A DNA stretch of 64,000 nt from a virus (lineage: Duplodnaviria; Caudoviricetes). Of this stretch, positions 7,390 through 59,463 are shown piece by piece. Where the stretch lies: IMG/VR virus record IMGVR_UViG_3300021431_000092, positions 1-64,000 of that record; one strand, 5' to 3'. A program made the translations under genes and the position numbers. Under the pieces are notes generated by a model. That model did no database searches, was not told the origin of the DNA, and was given only the letters and a program-made list of their open reading frames with translations. Position 1 is the first letter of the stretch. Each line of letters starts with the position of its first letter.

Positions 7390-7620
7390 CATATCGATAT
7401 ATGTGACGTAGATACGTGTTAAACAATGAAATGTTGGAAAAAATAAATGCGTTTTCTTCATCAAATCATGTGTATAAAAGCGCGTATCTACGTCATTTTC
7501 GGACGCACGAATTTGAACAAAACGTCCTCGTTAGGCGTGCTATTATTAGGTAGGAAGAGTGGGCTCATAACGCTCTTGATTTCCCACCATAATCATTTAT
7601 TTGAAAGGTTGTATGTTTTA

Positions 7621-7797
7621 ATGTTGGCTATTACAAAATTTGAGGCTTCCGAACTTCGCCGTCGTTGTCCGAATGTTCATATCGTCCGGACTATGAGACA
7701 GAAGTCGCGTCGTGGCAATTATTTTTGCGAAGAGACAGTTGCGGCGATTCGCGTTATTAAGGAGCTGCGGTCTGGCGAGATCAGTGACGTTGAATGA
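7621..7797 (+). CDS. Small basic hypothetical protein (58 aa)
   Basis: GAAAGGT RBS before ATG 7621 (MLAITKFE...); overlaps the start of the next gene. Confidence 0.6.
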   Translation: MLAITKFEASELRRRCPNVHIVRTMRQKSRRGNYFCEETVAAIRVIKELRSGEISDVE

Positions 7798-9008
7798 ATA
7801 TAATGCTTGCTCGTCAGCAAGGGGAAACAGATCTGCAATATCATCGTCGTCTTGTGTACGGTAAGCTTGTTGATAAAACGCTTTCCGATGTAGACTATAC
7901 AGAGTTGGCAGAGGCTATCTACGGGCAACCATACGCTCCTGATGTTGCAAGAAGAATGGCATATGGTAGTCGAAGAACTCTTGATCTTATAGCAAAAGAA
8001 GGTCTTGCTCCTGCTCAGGTGAACGATATTGACGATCGTATCGCTGAGCTTAAGATTGAGCGGCAGAAGCTTATGGATCAGAGAACAGCGTTTAATAAAT
8101 CTATCAGAGAGGTTGCGCGACAGCAGGAGTTGACTGAGATCATTGAGAGTGCTGTGAATAATGGTGCCCTTCCAAAACTTGAACCAAAAGAGCGTATTAT
8201 CTACGCATCTGATGGAACAAGGGATCTTCTTGTTAGTTTGAACGATTTGCATTTCGGTGCTGTTGTCGATAATAAATGGCGTAAGTACAATCCTGATATT
8301 TGTCGCCAAATGCTTATCGAGTATGCAGAAAAAGTTGAGCGCATCGCCGTTGAGACGGGTGCTATCAATTGTTATGTATGGAACGCCGGAGATAGTATAT
8401 CCGGATCAATTCACAAGAGTATTCAGGTGACTAACAAGGAGAATGTAATCAAACAAACATGTGGAGTGTCTGAACTTATTGCAGAGTTTCTGACGTCTAT
8501 TTCTCCGTTATTTGAAACGGTATCATATGTTTCTGTGGCCGGGAATCATAGTCGCATTGAAGCCAATAAAAAAGATGCACTTATATCGGAGCGACTTGAT
8601 AATATCACAGGTTGGTATCTTGATGCGCGTATGCGTGATGTTGCGAACGTAAGAATTATGAACGAAGCAACAATCGACGACACAATGTTTTTACTGGATA
8701 TTCGAGGAAAGAAATATTGTGGTGTTCATGGCGATTTTGATACGAGTATATCTAGTGTACAGTCGCTGAAGTCTATGTGCGAGCGCATCGGAGAATGCGA
8801 CGGGTTATACGCTGTGTTATCTGGGCACCTGCATCATAATAAGATAGACAGTGTGAACGGCGTAAAGTCAATAATGGCAGGGTCTTTCTTGGGTATGGAT
8901 GATTATTGTATTCAGCGCCGTATTTGCGGCAGACCGGAGCAGATAGTTTGTGTCTGTGATAATTCCGGTATTGTGTGCTCATACGACATTCAATTTTCTG
9001 AATCATAA
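7794..9008 (+). CDS. Calcineurin-like metallophosphoesterase (YonJ-like) with N-terminal coiled coil
   Basis: Motifs DLH, GD, GNH, HGD and GHLHH in canonical order. Confidence 0.85.
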   Translation: MNIMLARQQGETDLQYHRRLVYGKLVDKTLSDVDYTELAEAIYGQPYAPDVARRMAYGSRRTLDLIAKEGLAPAQVNDIDDRIAELKIERQKLMDQRTAFNKSIREVARQQELTEIIESAVNNGALPKLEPKERIIYASDGTRDLLVSLNDLHFGAVVDNKWRKYNPDICRQMLIEYAEKVERIAVETGAINCYVWNAGDSISGSIHKSIQVTNKENVIKQTCGVSELIAEFLTSISPLFETVSYVSVAGNHSRIEANKKDALISERLDNITGWYLDARMRDVANVRIMNEATIDDTMFLLDIRGKKYCGVHGDFDTSISSVQSLKSMCERIGECDGLYAVLSGHLHHNKIDSVNGVKSIMAGSFLGMDDYCIQRRICGRPEQIVCVCDNSGIVCSYDIQFSES

Positions 9009-9040: not shown

Positions 9041-10186
9041 ATGACACGCACCGAGTATTATTTCATCCTTAAAGATAAATATCAAGATGTTGATACGTTT
9101 TCTGAGATTGAAAGGACGTTTCGAAAGGTCGAGGAGTATTTTTCTCAACACGAAAGAATAGCAATATCCGTGTCTGGCGGAAGCGATTCTGACTGCATCG
9201 TACATTTGGTATGCACTTATTTTCCTGAGTATCTTGATAAATGCAGGTTTGTCTTTTGTAACACAGGGCTTGAATATGATGCAACAAAACGACATCTTGA
9301 TGATATTGAGGAAAAATACGGGATCAAGATAGATAGAGTTAGAGGAACAAGTGTTGTTACTTCTGTGAGAAAATATGGCGTACCAATACTTAACAAATAT
9401 AAATCAAACGTCATAGATGCATATCAAAGAGGAAAGCGGTATGCGGAAAGGTATATTTTTGAGGACGGCGCTGTAAGGTATCATGTAATGACGTTTACAG
9501 AGAAGCAGAGAGAAATGGTCAGATACGCAACAAAAAATGGAATTAAGATATCGGATAAGTGCTGTGATATAAGCAAGAAGAAACCCCTTCATGATTATGA
9601 AAGGTTGCACAATATAGACCTCAACATAACCGGAGAACGGAAGGCTGAGGGTGGGCGAAGAGCAATGGCTCACAAGTCTTGCTTTGAAGAACAAAAAGGT
9701 GGAAGACATAAATTCATGCCACTTTGGTGGTGGAGCGACGACGTCAAGGAAGCTTTCAAACAGGCAGAGGGGATTAGATACTCAGACTGTTATGAAGTGT
9801 GGGGGATGTCTCGTACCGGATGTGTTGGATGTCCTTTCTCTCTTGAAATAAAACAAGATCTTGAACGAATGCAGAAGTATGAGCCAAGAATGTATAAGGC
9901 TTGTATGAATGTGTTTGGGAAATCGTATGAATTAATGGATATGTTCAGATGTCACTCGCCCGCAAGAAGAGATGGTGAGAACAATACTATGTACGGAAGA
10001 ACATACGAAGATTCACCTCTCAAGAAGAGCGTTCTTTGTGTCGAAACTGGTAAAGTGTATACTTGCATGAAAGTTGCAGCCGAAGATACCGGATGTTTTG
10101 CTACAGCAATAACTGCTGTATGTAGGGGGAAGCGAAAGACAACAGGCGGTTATCATTGGAAGTATGTAGATGCCGATTCGGAATAA
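9041..10186 (+). CDS. PAPS-reductase-family (PP-loop) protein with C-terminal NUMOD1-like DNA-binding domain
   Basis: SVSGGSDS PP-loop, CC motif, RTGCVGCP; C-terminus VLCVETGKVY...AITAVCRGKRKTTGGYHWKY. Confidence 0.8.
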   Translation: MTRTEYYFILKDKYQDVDTFSEIERTFRKVEEYFSQHERIAISVSGGSDSDCIVHLVCTYFPEYLDKCRFVFCNTGLEYDATKRHLDDIEEKYGIKIDRVRGTSVVTSVRKYGVPILNKYKSNVIDAYQRGKRYAERYIFEDGAVRYHVMTFTEKQREMVRYATKNGIKISDKCCDISKKKPLHDYERLHNIDLNITGERKAEGGRRAMAHKSCFEEQKGGRHKFMPLWWWSDDVKEAFKQAEGIRYSDCYEVWGMSRTGCVGCPFSLEIKQDLERMQKYEPRMYKACMNVFGKSYELMDMFRCHSPARRDGENNTMYGRTYEDSPLKKSVLCVETGKVYTCMKVAAEDTGCFATAITAVCRGKRKTTGGYHWKYVDADSE

Positions 10187-16999: not shown

Positions 17000-18625
17000 A
17001 TGGGCAAAACTATGAGTTTGTATTTCGATGCTGTTGGTTCCACCATCACAAATATCAAAGAGGTGAACCATTCATTTGCAACAGCGTCTTTGAAAGTGAT
17101 GTATACAGGAAAGAATCGCAACACATCCAACCTTGAGCATGACGTTGTGGTGGACGCTCTTCCGACACTGTATAACGTCCCGATCGTATGTAACTACGAT
17201 CCTGAAAATAGAGAGATTGGCGGTCACGATCTTGAAGTTTTTAAGGATGCAGACGGTAATCTGAGAGTGAGAAATAAGACTGTCCCGTGTGGTGTTGTTA
17301 CAGATCATACGAAGTTTTCTTTTGTGACGGAGAAAGATGAGAATGGCGTTGAGCACGAATATCTTGTTGCAGATGGCGTCGTTCTTTGGAAGCGTCAGGA
17401 TGTTTATGAGTATATTGTAAACGATCTTAATGGCGTGATCGCTCACTCTATGGAAATTGATGTAACGAGCGGCGATGAGAACGAAGAGACCGGTTATTAT
17501 GATGTGAAGTCATTTGAGTTCACGGCTCTTTGTCTACTCGGAGATGGACACACACCTTGTTTTGAAGGAAGTCAGCTACAGGTGTACTCCGACAAGTCTA
17601 TCAAGAGTGAAATATCTGAAATGATGGAAGAGCTCAAAGAATGTTATTCACTGATTGCATCCGCCGATAATGCGGTTGACAATAATAAAACAACAATGGA
17701 AGGAGGAGAAACGATGCACGACGAGAAACTGAAACTGCTTGAGGAGTATGGTCTCACAGAAGACTCTCTCGATTTCGAGATTGATGCCCTCACTGTTGAC
17801 GAGCTTCGTGCGAAGTTTGAAGAGATGAAATCTGCTGACACAGAGAATGTCTCCGAAGACTCTGCTGTTGCTGAGCCTGAAACTGCGGGCGAAACTGCTG
17901 CCGAAGGCGAAACGGCTGAGAATTTCGATCTGAATTCCAATGTTCGTGAAGCACTGCATGAAGCTGTATCTTCTGAGGTTGTCCATCACGAGTGGGGAGA
18001 TTGCCCGAAGTATTGGCTCACAGATTATGATGCCGAAAAGTCTGAGGTGTATGTAGAAGCAACGGAAGATTGGAAGCTGTATGGGTTCAAGTACAACATG
18101 GACGGCGACAATGCTGTTATTGATTGGGGTACAAAGACAAGAAAGAAGTATGCAATCGTAGATTACGAAGAAGGCGCAGATATGGCGTCTAGCGCTGGCG
18201 GCGTATTCTCTGTTATGTCGTCTGTTATTGAGGCGGCTACTAAAGAGAAGACAGAAGCTTCTGAAAAGTATGAGGAAATTTCCGCAAAGTACGACGAAAT
18301 GGAAGCTGAAATTTGTTCTCTGAGAGAATTCAAACTTCAGGCAGAAAGCGCAGAGCGCACAGAAAAGGCAAACGCAGTATTTGCACAGTTCACAGATCTT
18401 GCTGGTAATGAGGCTTTTGAAGCACTCAGAACTGCAATTGAAGAGGACAATCTGAAGTTCGACGCAGAAACAATCGAGGAAAAGTGTTATGCGATTAGAG
18501 GAAGACTTGGCACACATGCAAGCTTCTCTATGGAAAAGACGTCTCCGAAGATTGTAGTCGAAAAGGACACAGACGAAGCCGATATGCCCTATGGCGGCGT
18601 TGTAGAAAAGTATAAGGGCAGATAA
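17000..18625 (+). CDS. Prohead protease-scaffold protein (YonD-like)
   Basis: N-terminal protease-like domain (IGGH, HSMEI, FTALCLLG) followed by an acidic coiled coil; between portal and capsid genes. Confidence 0.75.
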   Translation: MGKTMSLYFDAVGSTITNIKEVNHSFATASLKVMYTGKNRNTSNLEHDVVVDALPTLYNVPIVCNYDPENREIGGHDLEVFKDADGNLRVRNKTVPCGVVTDHTKFSFVTEKDENGVEHEYLVADGVVLWKRQDVYEYIVNDLNGVIAHSMEIDVTSGDENEETGYYDVKSFEFTALCLLGDGHTPCFEGSQLQVYSDKSIKSEISEMMEELKECYSLIASADNAVDNNKTTMEGGETMHDEKLKLLEEYGLTEDSLDFEIDALTVDELRAKFEEMKSADTENVSEDSAVAEPETAGETAAEGETAENFDLNSNVREALHEAVSSEVVHHEWGDCPKYWLTDYDAEKSEVYVEATEDWKLYGFKYNMDGDNAVIDWGTKTRKKYAIVDYEEGADMASSAGGVFSVMSSVIEAATKEKTEASEKYEEISAKYDEMEAEICSLREFKLQAESAERTEKANAVFAQFTDLAGNEAFEALRTAIEEDNLKFDAETIEEKCYAIRGRLGTHASFSMEKTSPKIVVEKDTDEADMPYGGVVEKYKGR

Positions 18626-18648: not shown

Positions 18649-19149
18649 ATGGCACACGCAGTAGTTCGTACCGACAAGATGTTCGGCACTGATAACCGTA
18701 CCGGCCTTGCTTCGGTAGAGTATTTTGTTTCTACCACTGCAACCGACATTGATAATGGTAATGTCGTTGTTGTTGGCGATCTGATTGATGGTGAACGCGA
18801 GATTTATAAGGCAACGGCTCCGGCTGCTAATACAGCAATCGAAAAGGTTGTTCTTATTGCAACTCCGGAGGTTAATTATTGCCCGAAGGAGTATCCGATT
18901 GAGAACTTCTACAACAAAGCAGGTAAGCCCGCACGCGGTTATTACCTCACCCATAACGCTATCTTCTCCGTCACTAAGGACGCACTTGATGGCGCTGCAA
19001 CACCGGCTGTTGGCAATATCGTTGAACTTAAGGCTGGCACAAAGCTGAACGTCGTTGCTTCCGCAACTTCTGGTTCTACCGTTGTTGGTAAGATCATCGC
19101 TATTGATACAGTTGGCCGCTTCACATTCTATGTGATTCAGGTAGACTAA
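18649..19149 (+). CDS. Head decoration / capsid-associated protein (YonC-like)
   Basis: Strong AAGGAGG RBS, highly biased codons, beta-rich 166 aa immediately before the capsid gene. Confidence 0.65.
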   Translation: MAHAVVRTDKMFGTDNRTGLASVEYFVSTTATDIDNGNVVVVGDLIDGEREIYKATAPAANTAIEKVVLIATPEVNYCPKEYPIENFYNKAGKPARGYYLTHNAIFSVTKDALDGAATPAVGNIVELKAGTKLNVVASATSGSTVVGKIIAIDTVGRFTFYVIQVD

Positions 19150-19179: not shown

Positions 19180-20149
19180 ATGGCTATTGAGAATGTAAAT
19201 GAAATCATCAAGCTCGGCGTTGATTCCTATGTTGGTAAGGTCGAGAAGTATTCTAATGACGAAGCTCAGGACACTCTCCGTAAGGCTCTGATTGAGGCTA
19301 ACGGTGGTTCCACTATTATGGACGCTCGCGCACTCCGTGATGGCAAGTGCAATGGTGTATTCTCTATCGTTGAGCAGATCCTCGCAGCAACAGTCATCGA
19401 CTCCCTTGCGCAGTCTGACTTCTTCAATGCTCTGGTTGATTACCGTAATGTCGCCGCTGGCGATCAGATGCAGTTCGATGTTGAGGACGCAAACCTGTTT
19501 GTTGTTAGCAAGGCTGCTGATGGCACTCAGGCAATTCGTCGTCAGCGTCTTGTCGGCGAGCAGGTCGTTCCGATCGAAACATCCGTTCATATCATTCGTA
19601 TCTACGAAGAGCTGAGCAGAGTTCTTGCAGGTCGTGTTGATTTCAACAAGATGATCGACACTGTTACCCGCTCCTTTAATCAGGACATTCTGAATCAGGT
19701 TTATGATCTGTGGATTAATGCTACTCAGGCAGATCTTGGCGGCGCTGCATACTTCCCGGCAACCGGTAATACATACAGCGAAGCTACTCTGCTTACTCTG
19801 ATCGAGCATGTTGAAGCTGCTGCTGGCGGCGCTAAGTCCACAATCATCGGTACTAAGATGGCTCTCCGCAATCTTATTCCGAGCATTCAGGGTTGGGATC
19901 AGAAGAACGTCGTCGATGCTCAGGGTTACGTTGGTAAGTTCTATGGCTCTGACGTTATCGTCATCCCGCAGCGTCACAGAGTTGGCACCACAAACTTCGT
20001 GTTTGATGACAAGACTCTGCACATCGTTGCTGGCGCAGGCGCAGATTCCAAGCCGATTAAGTTCGTATACGAGGGCAATCCGCTCATCATCCATCGTGAC
20101 GCATCCCAGAACATGGATCTCACGCAGGAATTCGTATATGCTGAGAAGT
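19180..20149 (+). CDS. Major capsid protein, exon 1 (YonB-like)
   Basis: High-expression codon bias and position; spliced product 342 aa. Confidence 0.8.
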
Positions 20150-21211
20150 TAAATAGTCGCTTAGTTGCGGCATGACCTAGCTTCCTTGCACCGAAAGGTG
20201 CTCGAATATAAACCCATTGAATTGCTGGAAAATCCTAAAGCGTACTTCACTAAAGCGTTGTCATGAAATATAGACGTGCGCGAATGTTGCGAAAGCAGAA
20301 AAAAGAAAGTACGATGGCGTATGGGTAATACCTAAGCGTTTTATTAATGGACAATCAGCAGCCAAGCCTCGAACAGAGGAAGGTTCAACGACTATCCAGA
20401 AATGGAGTAGGCTACAAGCTATTGGTGGCCGAAGTGGTGGGCTCCACATTTGTGGATGAAGATATAGTCTGCTCTCGTACCGAAAGGTCGAGGACGCATT
20501 GCGTCAAGATGGCTTAGCGAGCCATAGTGTGTGTGAAATAAATATAGGGATGTGATTCATATAAGTTCGAAAAAAGATCTGGTCGGACAAAAATATGGAT
20601 ATTGGACTGTTCTTGAAAGAAAAGATATTATCCGGGCAAATGGCAAACACAGAGGAGCATGACTGTGCAGATGTGAGTGTGGCAAAGAGGAAATAGTAGA
20701 TTAACAGAATCTTATTTCAGGGAAGAGCAGGTCATGCGGATGTTTGCGACAAAGGTTACAATCTGAAAGACAGGCTACTCATGGTGATTCTAATACAAAG
20801 TTATACAATGTTTGGTGCGGTATAAAGAGACGATGTTATAACAAAAACAATATCGCATATCAAAGATATGGCGGGAGAGGTATAACTATGTGCGAAGAGT
20901 GGCTACAATCATATGAGTCATTTAGACAATGGTGCGCGGATAATGGATATTGCAATGGATTAACTATAGATAGGATAGATAATAACAAAGGCTATTCTCC
21001 AGACAATTGCAGACTCGCAACAACAAAAGAACAGAACAATAATAAGAGGTCAAATAGAGAATACACATTTAACGGAGAAACTCACAATGTTACAGAATGG
21101 GCTAATATTGTTGGTATTAATCCGAAGACATTATTTAACAGATTATATAGCGGATGGTCTTTTGAGAGAGCCATCACAAAAGAACTCACACACAATTCTT
21201 AAACACACAGG
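20150..21211 (+). mobile_element. Group I intron (1062 nt) in the major capsid gene, carrying a degenerate HNH endonuclease gene
   Basis: Core elements aattgctggaa (P), aatcagcagcc (Q), ttcaacgacta (R), aagatatagtc (S); IGS GCUUC pairs with exon GAAGU; terminal G at 21211. Confidence 0.92.
20552..21202 (+). pseudogene. Intron-encoded HNH homing endonuclease with two in-frame stops
   Basis: DLVGQKYG..A*LCRCECG..D*QNLISG..SCGC..KLYNVWCGIKRRCYN..YGGRG..LTIDRIDNNKGYSPDNCR; TGA at 20660, TAA at 20702. Confidence 0.85.
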
Positions 21212-21270
21212 ACGGTCTTGGTCTGGTTACTTCTGGTAACGCAGGTATCGGTAAGTATCAGTTTATCTAA
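21212..21270 (+). CDS. Major capsid protein, exon 2 (last 19 aa)
   Basis: Splice T|AC gives ...AEKYGLGLVTSGNAGIGKYQFI*, with the same codon bias as exon 1. Confidence 0.85.
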
Positions 21271-22687: not shown

Positions 22688-23104
22688 ATGGGTGTTTGGG
22701 ATATTTATGACGAGCGAATAGCCGCAAGAGGATCGACCAAGCGCAATTCGTTCATCAAGCGTGAGAAGCGTTATATTTATGACCATCTTGTTGACAATCC
22801 GTCATATAGCGAGTGTATCGTAGACGGTGAAACTAGATTGTGCGGGATTATGAACACAGATAACCTCGACAGGAAGACTATTATTTCTATGCCAGACGAA
22901 GACCTTAGACATGGCGCTCTCGTTGAGTGGATGGACAATAAGTGGCTGATTGTAGAGAGAGACGCGAATACGACACTGTACACAAAGTGTGTTATGCAAC
23001 AGTGTAACTACTTCCTCCAATGGGTGGATAAGGATGGAAACATTTGTGGGCAGTGGGCGTATATTAACGACTCGACAAAGTATCTAACTGGTGAACTTGA
23101 GGAT
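22688..23104 (+). CDS. Putative head-closure/neck protein (YomX-like), exon 1
   Basis: Ends KYLTGELED; spliced product 252 aa. Confidence 0.7.
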
Positions 23105-23451
23105 GAACCTATTTGGTCTTGTCCGCTTGCGCAGAAATGCGCTTGAATAATAACCTATTGAATTGCTGGAACGCCCTTAGAGATATAGACACCACAGCGT
23201 AATCATGAAACACGGGTATGTGCGAAGGTTTGAAAAGAGCTATATATTGGGTAATCAGCAGCCAAGCTCCGAACAGGAGAAGGTTCAGAGACTAAGATTC
23301 GGCAAGCGTTTGGTCGAACAGTGGTAGGCACCCGCAAGGGTGAAGATATAGTCCGTGCTCTGTCGAAAGATAGAGGCCGATAAGTCGGCGGCATGGCGTA
23401 GCGAGCCTAAATAAAGTAAAGGGGAACCTTCGCTTTATGCTAAACATATAG
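23105..23451 (+). mobile_element. Group I intron (347 nt, no ORF) in the head-tail gene
   Basis: aattgctggaa, aatcagcagcc, ttcagagacta and aagatatagtc core elements; IGS GUCU-U-GUCC pairs with 3' exon AGAC (P10) and 5' exon GGAU (P1); terminal G at 23451. Confidence 0.92.
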
Positions 23452-23793
23452 AGACACTTTATAGTCACCAGAGGCGATACAAGACTTTCTGTCACGATCG
23501 CCAGAACGCCAGATGCACTTCGTTTGGATAGAACTACGAGGTTTATCATCGACGATCCTGACTGCCACGAGCATTTGGCTTATGTACTTACGAAGCCACT
23601 TCGTATGGGTCAGGTATTTAATGGTAATGGTGTTTTCTCATTTATTATGCAGGAAGTCGAGACTACAGATGATGACAACCTCGACCTTCTTATTGCGGAT
23701 TACTATAAGCACTTTCCAAGACGCGCAGATGATGAGCGGCCTGTATTTCACGGCGGCACAAATCCTAGCGCGGATAAGGAGGTGTGGATCTGA
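23452..23793 (+). CDS. Putative head-closure/neck protein, exon 2
   Basis: Open frame RHFIVTRGDTRLSVTIAR... continues into ORF 23524..23793. Confidence 0.75.
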   Translation, partial: RHFIVTRGDTRLSVTIARTPDALRLDRTTRFIIDDPDCHEHLAYVLTKPLRMGQVFNGNGVFSFIMQEVETTDDDNLDLLIADYYKHFPRRADDERPVFHGGTNPSADKEVWI

Positions 23794-44672: not shown

Positions 44673-44773
44673 TAACTTCGATTTGTATTGTACCCATAAA
44701 TAGGTTATAGGGTTACCCATTTACCACAACTTGGATAGGCGAAAGCCGAAAGAAAATGATTTGAAATAAAAAA

Positions 44774-58485: not shown

Positions 58486-59463
58486 CGTCAATTCCGCCAT
58501 TTCTGACAGGACAGACTATATCTTCTATGGAATATCTATTACCAACATTCCACAGCCGCGCGCTTCGGGCAATGCCCTACTCTACTTGCTTCTTCTCATA
58601 GATATTTCTTCTATGATATGCTTTCGATAGTCGTTACACTTTTATCAATCAATTGCACTTGAATGGAATTCATATCCTTTGTATATCCGGTGTATGCGTC
58701 CGTGAATCGCTGCGCTTACATTACTAATATTCAGGTTGTTATCTCTTGCAAACTTTGATATATTTGTGATACTCTCTCTTGAACCGTCTGGTTTTATCAC
58801 ATATACATAACCTAATTTTGTATGAGCTTTAACCTTTCCAACGTCTCCGCGCCTTGCATTCTCTGACACCGTAACCCATTCACAGTTGCTTGGAGTATAA
58901 TCTCCATTAGAATCGAGTCTATCTATTGAAAGACCGTCTTTATATCCGTTCGAAATAGCCCACCTTTTGAACGCATCATATCCACCAAGTAGCCATTCGT
59001 CGCACATTACAACGCCTTTACCACCATAGCACTCATATCTCGGATTGTTTGGGTTATAACACCTTTGCTTTATACCATGATAAATATGATATAGTTTTTC
59101 ATTCCTAACTCCAGACTCCCTACATTTATTACAGAACTCAGTTTTTCTGCGCTTCAATGCATTCCTGTCGACCCACACTTCATTGCCGCAATCACACACA
59201 CATAGCCAACTCGTCTTCCTGTTCGGCAACTCTCCTGTTTGCTTGTATTTATCAGTGACAGTTAAACTCCCAAACTTCTTACCAACAATATCAAGCTTCA
59301 CATGCTTCACGATCATCACCCCCTTATTATTTTTTAATAATATGCTATTGATTGATACTTAGCACGGTATTACCATATCCACTTCGGACTTAGGCTCTCT
59401 TACCACCTTAACCTCTCGGTTTAGTTGACCGTTTTCACGCGGTTTTGATTGGGCAAATCAATC
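58486..59463 (-). mobile_element. Group I intron (978 nt) in dnaE with an intact HNH endonuclease gene
   Basis: Exon UUGGGU pairs with IGS GCCCAA; R gtaacgacta and S aagatatagtc on the - strand; terminal G at 58486; ORF looped out between tatcaatcaat/attgattgata. Confidence 0.92.
58645..59319 (-). CDS. Intron-encoded HNH homing endonuclease
   Basis: DIVGKKFGSLTV..WLCVCDCG..GIKQRCYN..YGGKG..SIDRLDSNGDYTPSNCEW..EN; C-terminal HTH. Confidence 0.88.
   Translation of the reverse strand: MMIVKHVKLDIVGKKFGSLTVTDKYKQTGELPNRKTSWLCVCDCGNEVWVDRNALKRRKTEFCNKCRESGVRNEKLYHIYHGIKQRCYNPNNPRYECYGGKGVVMCDEWLLGGYDAFKRWAISNGYKDGLSIDRLDSNGDYTPSNCEWVTVSENARRGDVGKVKAHTKLGYVYVIKPDGSRESITNISKFARDNNLNISNVSAAIHGRIHRIYKGYEFHSSAID

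Follow-up and report, generated by a model that had tools for sequence, protein, structure and literature searches.

The locus described here raises the question of whether the major capsid gene of a tailed phage ends at the stop codon that closes its open reading frame, or whether it is interrupted near its 3' end by a group I intron and completed by a short terminal exon. The window, meaning the whole stretch of DNA that was analyzed, is the first 64 kb of a 101,737-base IMG/VR virus record, which is a metagenomic assembly with an estimated completeness of 86%. Our reading, to which we assign a probability of about 90%, is that a mobile-type group I intron interrupts the major capsid gene, that the spliced mRNA would encode a 342-aa HK97-fold capsid protein, and that the HNH endonuclease gene of the intron has decayed. 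In what follows, database proteins carry P numbers, related loci carry L numbers, and splice sites are marked by a caret (^).

The capsid gene and its two readings

A typical head module surrounds the capsid gene on the + strand. The genes and exons concerned are as follows.

17000-18625, + strand: gene for a 541-aa protein matching phrog_3313; the Bacillus phage Kirov counterpart carries the annotation putative prohead protease
18649-19149, + strand: gene for a 166-aa protein, between the 541-aa protein and the capsid ORF
19180-20175, + strand: capsid ORF in its unspliced reading, as it stands in the ORF list
19180-20149, + strand: major capsid gene exon 1, made up of 323 codons and T, the first base of a Tyr codon
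21212-21270, + strand: exon 2, 59 nt, which completes the Tyr codon and encodes GLGLVTSGNAGIGKYQFI, with the stop TAA at 21268-21270

The gene order is the same as that of Bacillus phage Kirov, namely prohead protease, small protein and major capsid protein, and the capsid homologs lie close behind the prohead protease gene. In tblastn searches, homologs of the exon 1 ORF in the Bacillus phages Kirov, Thrax1/3 and PJN02 were annotated as major capsid protein, and structural proteins of the Lactococcus 949-like phages AM4 and AM5 matched the capsid ORF in the same gene order. The exon 1 product also matches phrog_4088 (E 8e-71). A Pfam scan of the capsid, endonuclease and neighboring proteins gave a sole match, on the 541-aa neighbor and below its cut-off; the Pfam copy scanned is apparently older than the precomputed family PF27364. 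No intrinsic terminator was called 3' of exon 2 by a consensus scan.

Without splicing, the capsid reading ends ...AEKLNSRLVAA at an in-frame TGA (20173-20175), just 5' of the guide sequence of the intron. The predicted ligated junction, GAGAAGT^ACGGTC, joins the end of exon 1, GCTGAGAAGT, to ACGGTCTTGG. Exon lengths of 970 and 59 nt keep the reading frame, and the spliced reading is a 342-aa protein with the C-terminus AEKYGLGLVTSGNAGIGKYQFI; the peptide YGLGLVTSGNAGIGK is part of this predicted product. The intron site is located inside the Tyr codon, 19 codons before the capsid stop. A preliminary description of this DNA had claimed a terminal exon of 59 nt and a change of the apparent end AEKLNSRLVAA into the spliced tail. 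The exon is present with the boundaries it gave, and the translations of both readings agree exactly with it.

Intron-less homologs carry the spliced C-terminus

A protein search with exon 1 returned 2743 relatives at E <= 1e-10. The best of them, P0001, is intron-less, 342 aa long and 98% identical over exon 1, and it ends AETYGLGLVTSGNAGIGKYQFI. All 19 residues after the junction are identical between this tail and the predicted spliced tail, which implies that exon 2 is still expressed. P0002 is likewise intron-less and 342 aa long, with 87% identity, and its end, AEKYGLGLVTAGNAGIGKYSFT, is near-identical to the exon 2 product. The more distant homologs from the cultured phages Kirov, Sundance and AM5 have a tail of the form x-G-[ILV]-[AG]...G-[IFVY], which is missing from the unspliced form, and intron-less homologs continue with YG.G...G.G.Y past the splice point. 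Viral and metagenome contigs supplied 162 related capsid loci, and in 150 of these the tail pattern is contiguous with the gene, with no intron. In the alignment with intron-less homologs, the junction reproduces their C-terminus, and these homologous capsids carry the spliced-type tail and not the unspliced end, as the preliminary description had anticipated.

The junction was set by protein comparison and the U/G rules; the nearest DNA relative of the capsid locus among the viral and metagenome contigs (L090) is only 70% identical. An intron at exactly the window's capsid site was present in none of the fetched related loci (viral and metagenome contigs), so it is the truncated protein calls that support this site. 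In public protein sets, P0003, P0013, P0021, P0059, P0066 and P0115 are 318-330 aa long, versus 336-343 aa, and they are probably truncated calls across unrecognized introns. The sequences of P0003, P0013, P0021 and P0059 were read, and all four end ...AA like the unspliced form, which bears out the suspicion that gene callers would mis-annotate the capsid. The ends of three are given here.

P0003: ends AERLLDSQIAA, 83% identical
P0013: ends GERLTVSCEAA
P0021: ends AEKLTDGRIAA

These three capsids are 68-83% identical to that of the window, and their sequences would fit an intron beginning UA at the window's site.

The ribozyme core and its covariation

The Rfam model RF00028 matched 20152-20492 (+) over its full length (1-253) with 70.8 bits and an E value of 6e-16, against a gathering score of 50; the search was also repeated on the whole record. 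The full group I core that had been claimed by inspection was thus recovered by a covariance model search well above threshold. Core elements P2 to P9 lie within 20152-20492 and include the following.

20188-20201, + strand: P2
20390-20394 and 20465-20469, + strand: P7, GACUA/UAGUC, which covaries in the family
20474-20492, + strand: P9

Covariation was evaluated in an alignment of 14 introns from related loci, with both window copies included. Compensatory changes on both sides were found in 53 of 79 consensus pairs, and the covarying consensus fold covers P2, P3, P4, P5 with its extension, P6, two hairpins between P7 and P3', P8, P9 and P9.1a. The strands of the P7 pseudoknot, which RNAalifold cannot draw, were checked separately; P7 forms five of five pairs in all 14 introns by way of GACUA/UAGUC, GAUCA/UGAUC or GACCA/UGGUC. 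The capsid intron of the window has 74 of its 84 consensus pairs canonical as aligned. Seven of the ten noncanonical pairs are alignment shifts in the P5 extension and P8, where direct reading gives perfect helices (GUACUU/AAGUAC and UCCACA/UGUGGA), and P2, the P5 extension and P9 account for the other three with single mismatched pairs.

Introns of subgroup IA are distinguished by extra helices, P7.1/P7.2, located between P7 and the 3' strand of P3. Two covarying hairpins lie at this place in the family alignment (columns 317-330 and 334-356) and may correspond to them. Introns of Thomasclavelia, Enterocloster, Bacillus, Alicyclobacillus and Staphylococcus phages, some annotated and some not, resemble the core with a nucleotide similarity of about 70-73% over 55-71% of its length.

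The 5' splice site and the guide sequence

The intron occupies 20150-21211 (1062 nt, + strand). U 20149 closes exon 1, whose end reads ...GCUGAGAAGU, and UAAAUAG from 20150 onward opens the intron, so that the 5' splice context reads GAGAAGU^UAAAUAG. The two strands of P1 are as follows.

20145-20151, + strand: 5' strand of P1, GAAGU^UA, spanning the 5' splice site, with U 20149 as the last exon base
20178-20184, + strand: internal guide sequence UAGCUUC, the 3' strand of P1, paired with 20145-20151 in the minimum-free-energy fold

The splice-site U 20149 stands opposite a G of the guide, and the U.G pair that had been proposed for P1 is therefore seen in the fold between GAAGU^UA and UAGCUUC. 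P10 is weak: GGUC of exon 2 can pair with GACC at 20174-20177, giving four pairs offset by 2 nt from the junction. The guides of the window's second intron and of capsid introns at two other sites, both described below, were read in the same way.

Site after KPIKF: P1 5' strand AGUU^UA, guide UAGACU
Site after TQE: P1 5' strand GAGU^UA, guide UAGCUC
Window's capsid site, after AEK+T: P1 5' strand GAAGU^UA, guide UAGCUUC
Window's second intron: P1 5' strand GGAU^GA, guide UUGUCC

The guide matches its own insertion site in all ten of the ten intron copies read. As the guide tracks the insertion site, it provides independent support for the 5' splice sites.

The 3' splice site

Past the end of the Rfam model, the intron continues with P9.1 and P9.1a, then with a loop of about 650 nt that holds the endonuclease ORF, and then with its 3' end.

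20493-20505, + strand: P9.1 hairpin of the fold, conserved and with compensatory changes in the family alignment
20509-20525, + strand: P9.1a hairpin of the fold, conserved and with compensatory changes in the family alignment
20527-20535, + strand: GU-repeat strand of the fold
20552-21202, + strand: remnant of an HNH homing-endonuclease gene, in the P9 loop
21187-21194 or 21203-21209, + strand: CA-repeat strands at the intron's 3' end, pairing with 20527-20535 and followed by the terminal G 21211

In the fold, the pairing of the GU repeat with the CA repeat closes the loop of about 650 nt and returns the 3' splice site to the core. The intron sequence runs up to ...AACACACAGG and finishes on G 21211 (context ...ACACAGG^ACGGUC), so the terminal G claimed earlier is in place. 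Its last nucleotides, AAACACACAGG^, resemble those of the site-B introns (AACAUCACG^ and AACAUAACAG^), and the second intron of the window has a similar end, AACAUAUAG^. The capsid intron, the site-B capsid introns and the second intron have the motif AACAYAnnAG^ at their 3' termini in common.

The Rfam alignment puts the terminal G at 20492, and an intron ending there would leave a capsid protein that stops directly after ...AEK, as the joining creates an immediate UGA; the match of 21212-21270 to capsid tails would then be irrelevant. We regard this as extremely improbable, since all intron-less homologs go on with the glycine-rich tail YG.G...G.G.Y, since ORF-less members of the family run about 75-110 nt beyond the model end through the conserved hairpins P9.1 and P9.1a, and since the 3' end at 21211 carries the family motif. 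The G at 20492 may be used as an occasional cryptic splice site.

The intron is of a type common in phages of Firmicutes, and with its 3' end at 21211, splicing would proceed as follows. After transcription, the RNA would fold into its P1-P9 core. Free guanosine would attack after U 20149, held by the guide in P1; exon 1, once released, would in turn attack after G 21211, so that ...GAGAAGU becomes joined to ACGGUC.... Ribosomes on unspliced RNA would stop at the UGA at 20173, ahead of the guide and the core. We infer from these sequence features that splicing takes place in this phage, and its efficiency is judged on the same basis.

The endonuclease gene has decayed

The ORF in the P9 loop matches phrog_3377 (HNH endonuclease, E 2e-56) and phrog_374 (E 4e-49), and it is 46-50% identical to ORFs of Staphylococcus myophages. 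Its orthologs begin with a Zn-ribbon-like motif, W.C.C.CG ... SCGC, and those in the capsid introns of L011, L071 and L145 are intact and open for about 213 aa. In the window, an in-frame TGA (20660-20662) replaces the invariant Trp of the W.C.C.CG motif, an in-frame TAA (20702-20704) stands where the orthologs have a variable residue, and the conserved CRW reads CRL. The longest open piece (20744-21202) gives 152 aa from a TTG, an N-terminally truncated protein at best. No frameshift was found in the remnant, so the decay looks recent. A reading of TGA as Trp was considered and rejected, since 14 of the 41 long + strand ORFs terminate in TGA, several of them tightly abutting their neighbors, and since the second stop is TAA. 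With TGA as an ordinary stop and TAA as the second one, the changes indicate decay and not recoding.

With two nonsense codons, this copy of the intron is probably immobile. The intron would once have been mobile by means of its own HNH homing endonuclease, encoded in the P9-domain loop, and the present copy would persist only because the ribozyme still works. Such a state is what one expects late in the history of a homing element, when selection acts on the ribozyme but not on the endonuclease.

The decay of the endonuclease gene would also suit a ribozyme that is itself dead or inefficient, in which case the capsid gene would be effectively truncated, the phage defective and exon 2 a recent relic; that the record is a metagenomic assembly of 86% estimated completeness points in the same direction. 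We consider this very unlikely, because all core helices are intact in the window copy, the model score is well over threshold, and exon 2 shows no change from the intron-less homolog with 98% identity. Calls truncated in the same manner are, in addition, found in the 68-83% identical capsids P0003, P0013 and P0021. An intron at the window's site would thus have persisted through considerable divergence of the capsid, which requires splicing.

The capsid fold and the unspliced product

The capsid profile gave only one, insignificant match (E 0.24) to the sequences of solved structures, so a fold search was needed. The AlphaFold2 model of P0001, made with 34 aligned homologs, has a mean pLDDT of 70.8 and a pTM of 0.67 and is of moderate confidence only. 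It matches 301 PDB chains at E<=0.001, and the top matches listed are phage HK97-fold capsid proteins or encapsulins; by this model, the protein whose gene hosts the intron is an HK97-fold capsid protein. The last two elements of the model are the strands 317-328 and 336-341. Residues 323 and 324 flank the splice point, which places it within the second-to-last beta strand (317-328); the unspliced product would therefore lack half of that strand and the whole last strand.

Every interrupted relative has an in-frame stop within the first few codons of its intron. The preliminary description had proposed that unspliced RNA makes an alternative C-terminus, and the in-frame stop does give a defined truncated reading. 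No evidence points to a functional isoform: the residues lost make up part of the last two HK97 strands in the model, and a function for the unspliced product is unsupported.

The same defined product could be taken to mean that splicing is a regulatory or competitive device and not the activity of a neutral parasite, serving to time the supply of capsid protein or to provide the truncated product as an assembly modulator. The precedent for this is of a general kind, in that condition-dependent splicing and intron-based competition between phages are discussed in PMC10914365 and PMC11620839. Such a device is a most improbable explanation here, as 93% of the related capsid genes are without any intron, and splicing is therefore not needed for regulation of the gene; moreover, the endonuclease is broken and the truncated product would be without part of the conserved terminal strands. 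A mobile-type intron with a decayed endonuclease gene remains our preferred reading.

A second intron and introns in related phages

The window contains another intron of the same family.

23105-23451, + strand: second group I intron, ORF-less; RF00028 85.6 bits; flanked by U 23104 and G 23451

It is situated 1.9 kb downstream of the capsid intron, in the next-but-two late gene (phrog_5251/16444), which it splits into exons at about 22688-23104 and 23452-23793. The joined exons read ...TGELED^RHFIVTRGD..., which is contiguous in intron-less homologs, and L023, L035 and L128 have an insertion of about 1 kb at the same site. The preliminary description mentioned neither this intron nor the broken state of the endonuclease gene. 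A search of the genome for further copies with a family-specific nhmmer profile found only the two known ones. A sub-threshold RF00028 hit at 58493-58621 (-), with 19.3 bits and an E value of 6e-4 for the genome, was not reproduced by nhmmer and is probably due to chance.

The capsid gene is interrupted in 11 of the 162 related loci (about 7%), at two sites other than that of the window.

L071-L073: site after KPIKF, about residue 295; Rfam-confirmed group I
L011, L039, L042, L074, L083, L094, L141 and L145: site after TQE, about residue 317; Rfam-confirmed group I

The unspliced readings at these sites end ...AA (or ...VA, ...YI), with a stop just 5' of the guide. The three capsid insertion sites, after KPIKF, TQE and AEK+T, are each in an invariant protein motif. 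Flanking genes contain introns as well, with up to three introns per 8-kb related locus, and the RF00028 matches in them are listed here.

L039: 6776-7061 and 7607-7920
L011: 7451-7782
L071: 5625-6014
L074: 6782-7082
L083: 2341-2729 and 6544-6771
L073: 89-389

In some genomes, the closest match of the capsid intron is the intron of a different late gene. In L039, it groups with the intron of another gene of the same genome with a support of 0.88 in a small FastTree analysis, which hints at intragenomic spread or gene conversion. We tentatively suggest, as a possibility with the odds against it, that one group I lineage is actively colonizing, in gut and rumen phages, the final ~50 codons of this capsid family. 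The three sites, the invariant motifs and the retuned guides might then reflect ongoing ectopic movement, by reverse splicing or retargeted endonucleases, and not simple homing.

Comparison with known phage introns

The preliminary description had confined phage group I introns largely to DNA-metabolism, terminase and lysin genes. That view is out of date, as capsid introns have been published for the phages Tuc2009 and LittleE. Group I introns in capsid genes are thus already known, and the present one, judged from its sequence, is a further, comparison-backed case.

The capsid intron of mycobacteriophage LittleE (Cluster J) splices efficiently according to RT-PCR and N-terminal protein sequencing, and an intron related to it sits in a tail gene (PMC3706429). 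Like the window's intron, it lies in the major capsid gene, follows an exon 1 with a final U, ends with G, has an endonuclease gene and was recognized by comparison with intron-less relatives. The two differ in position: in LittleE, the intron is close to the 5' part of the mature capsid sequence, and in the window it is 19 codons from the stop. The LittleE endonuclease is LAGLIDADG-like and encoded on the opposite strand, while that of the window is of the HNH type and on the same strand. The LittleE intron is only tentatively group I, whereas that of the window is a clear Rfam match.

Lactococcus phage Tuc2009 is listed in PMC2504315, and cited in PMC3706429, as a phage whose major head protein gene contains a group I intron. 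Judged by the interrupted gene, it resembles the window in that a siphophage with a low-GC Gram-positive host has its capsid (head) gene split by a group I intron; it differs in capsid family and in insertion site. Two group I introns in late genes are ascribed to Lactobacillus delbrueckii phage JCL1032 (Riipinen and Alatossava 2004, cited in PMC6669764). By that citation, the likeness to the window is that a single siphophage has several self-splicing introns in its late structural module, and the difference lies in the host genes.

An ORF looped out from a peripheral helix and an early in-frame stop are shared with introns of Staphylococcus Twort/Kayvirus phages, of Bacillus SPO1-like phages and Bastillevirinae (PMC11878797), and with T4 td, nrdB and nrdD. 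Intron-rich Bacillus phages are surveyed in the same paper (PMC11878797). Most introns of Firmicutes phages and T4 reside in DNA polymerase, ribonucleotide reductase, lysin, terminase or tape-measure genes, whereas that of the window is in a capsid gene.

As efficiently splicing introns in capsid genes are already documented (PMC3706429), current understanding is unchanged. The locus would be a clean case in which production of the most abundant protein of the virion depends on self-splicing RNA, and it illustrates the course that a homing intron is expected to take, in which the ribozyme is retained and the endonuclease decays.

Consequences for annotation and additional observations

When the intron is present, the capsid of this phage group is mis-called in public sets as a protein of 318-335 aa. 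Such truncated calls distort capsid-based phylogenies, clustering and structure prediction, and intron-aware annotation would fix this.

A related intron core was observed in Enterocloster phage CB457P1 (L170, OP172753.1) at ~8340-8600, followed by a gene named 'intron-associated endonuclease 1'. The record of this phage has no intron annotated, and the core lies between the hypothetical CDSs 7538-8296 and 9715-10155, which are probably two exons of one gene. Elsewhere in the window, positions 44683-44764 (+) match the Rfam 'drum' sRNA with 43.4 bits, barely over the gathering score of 43.
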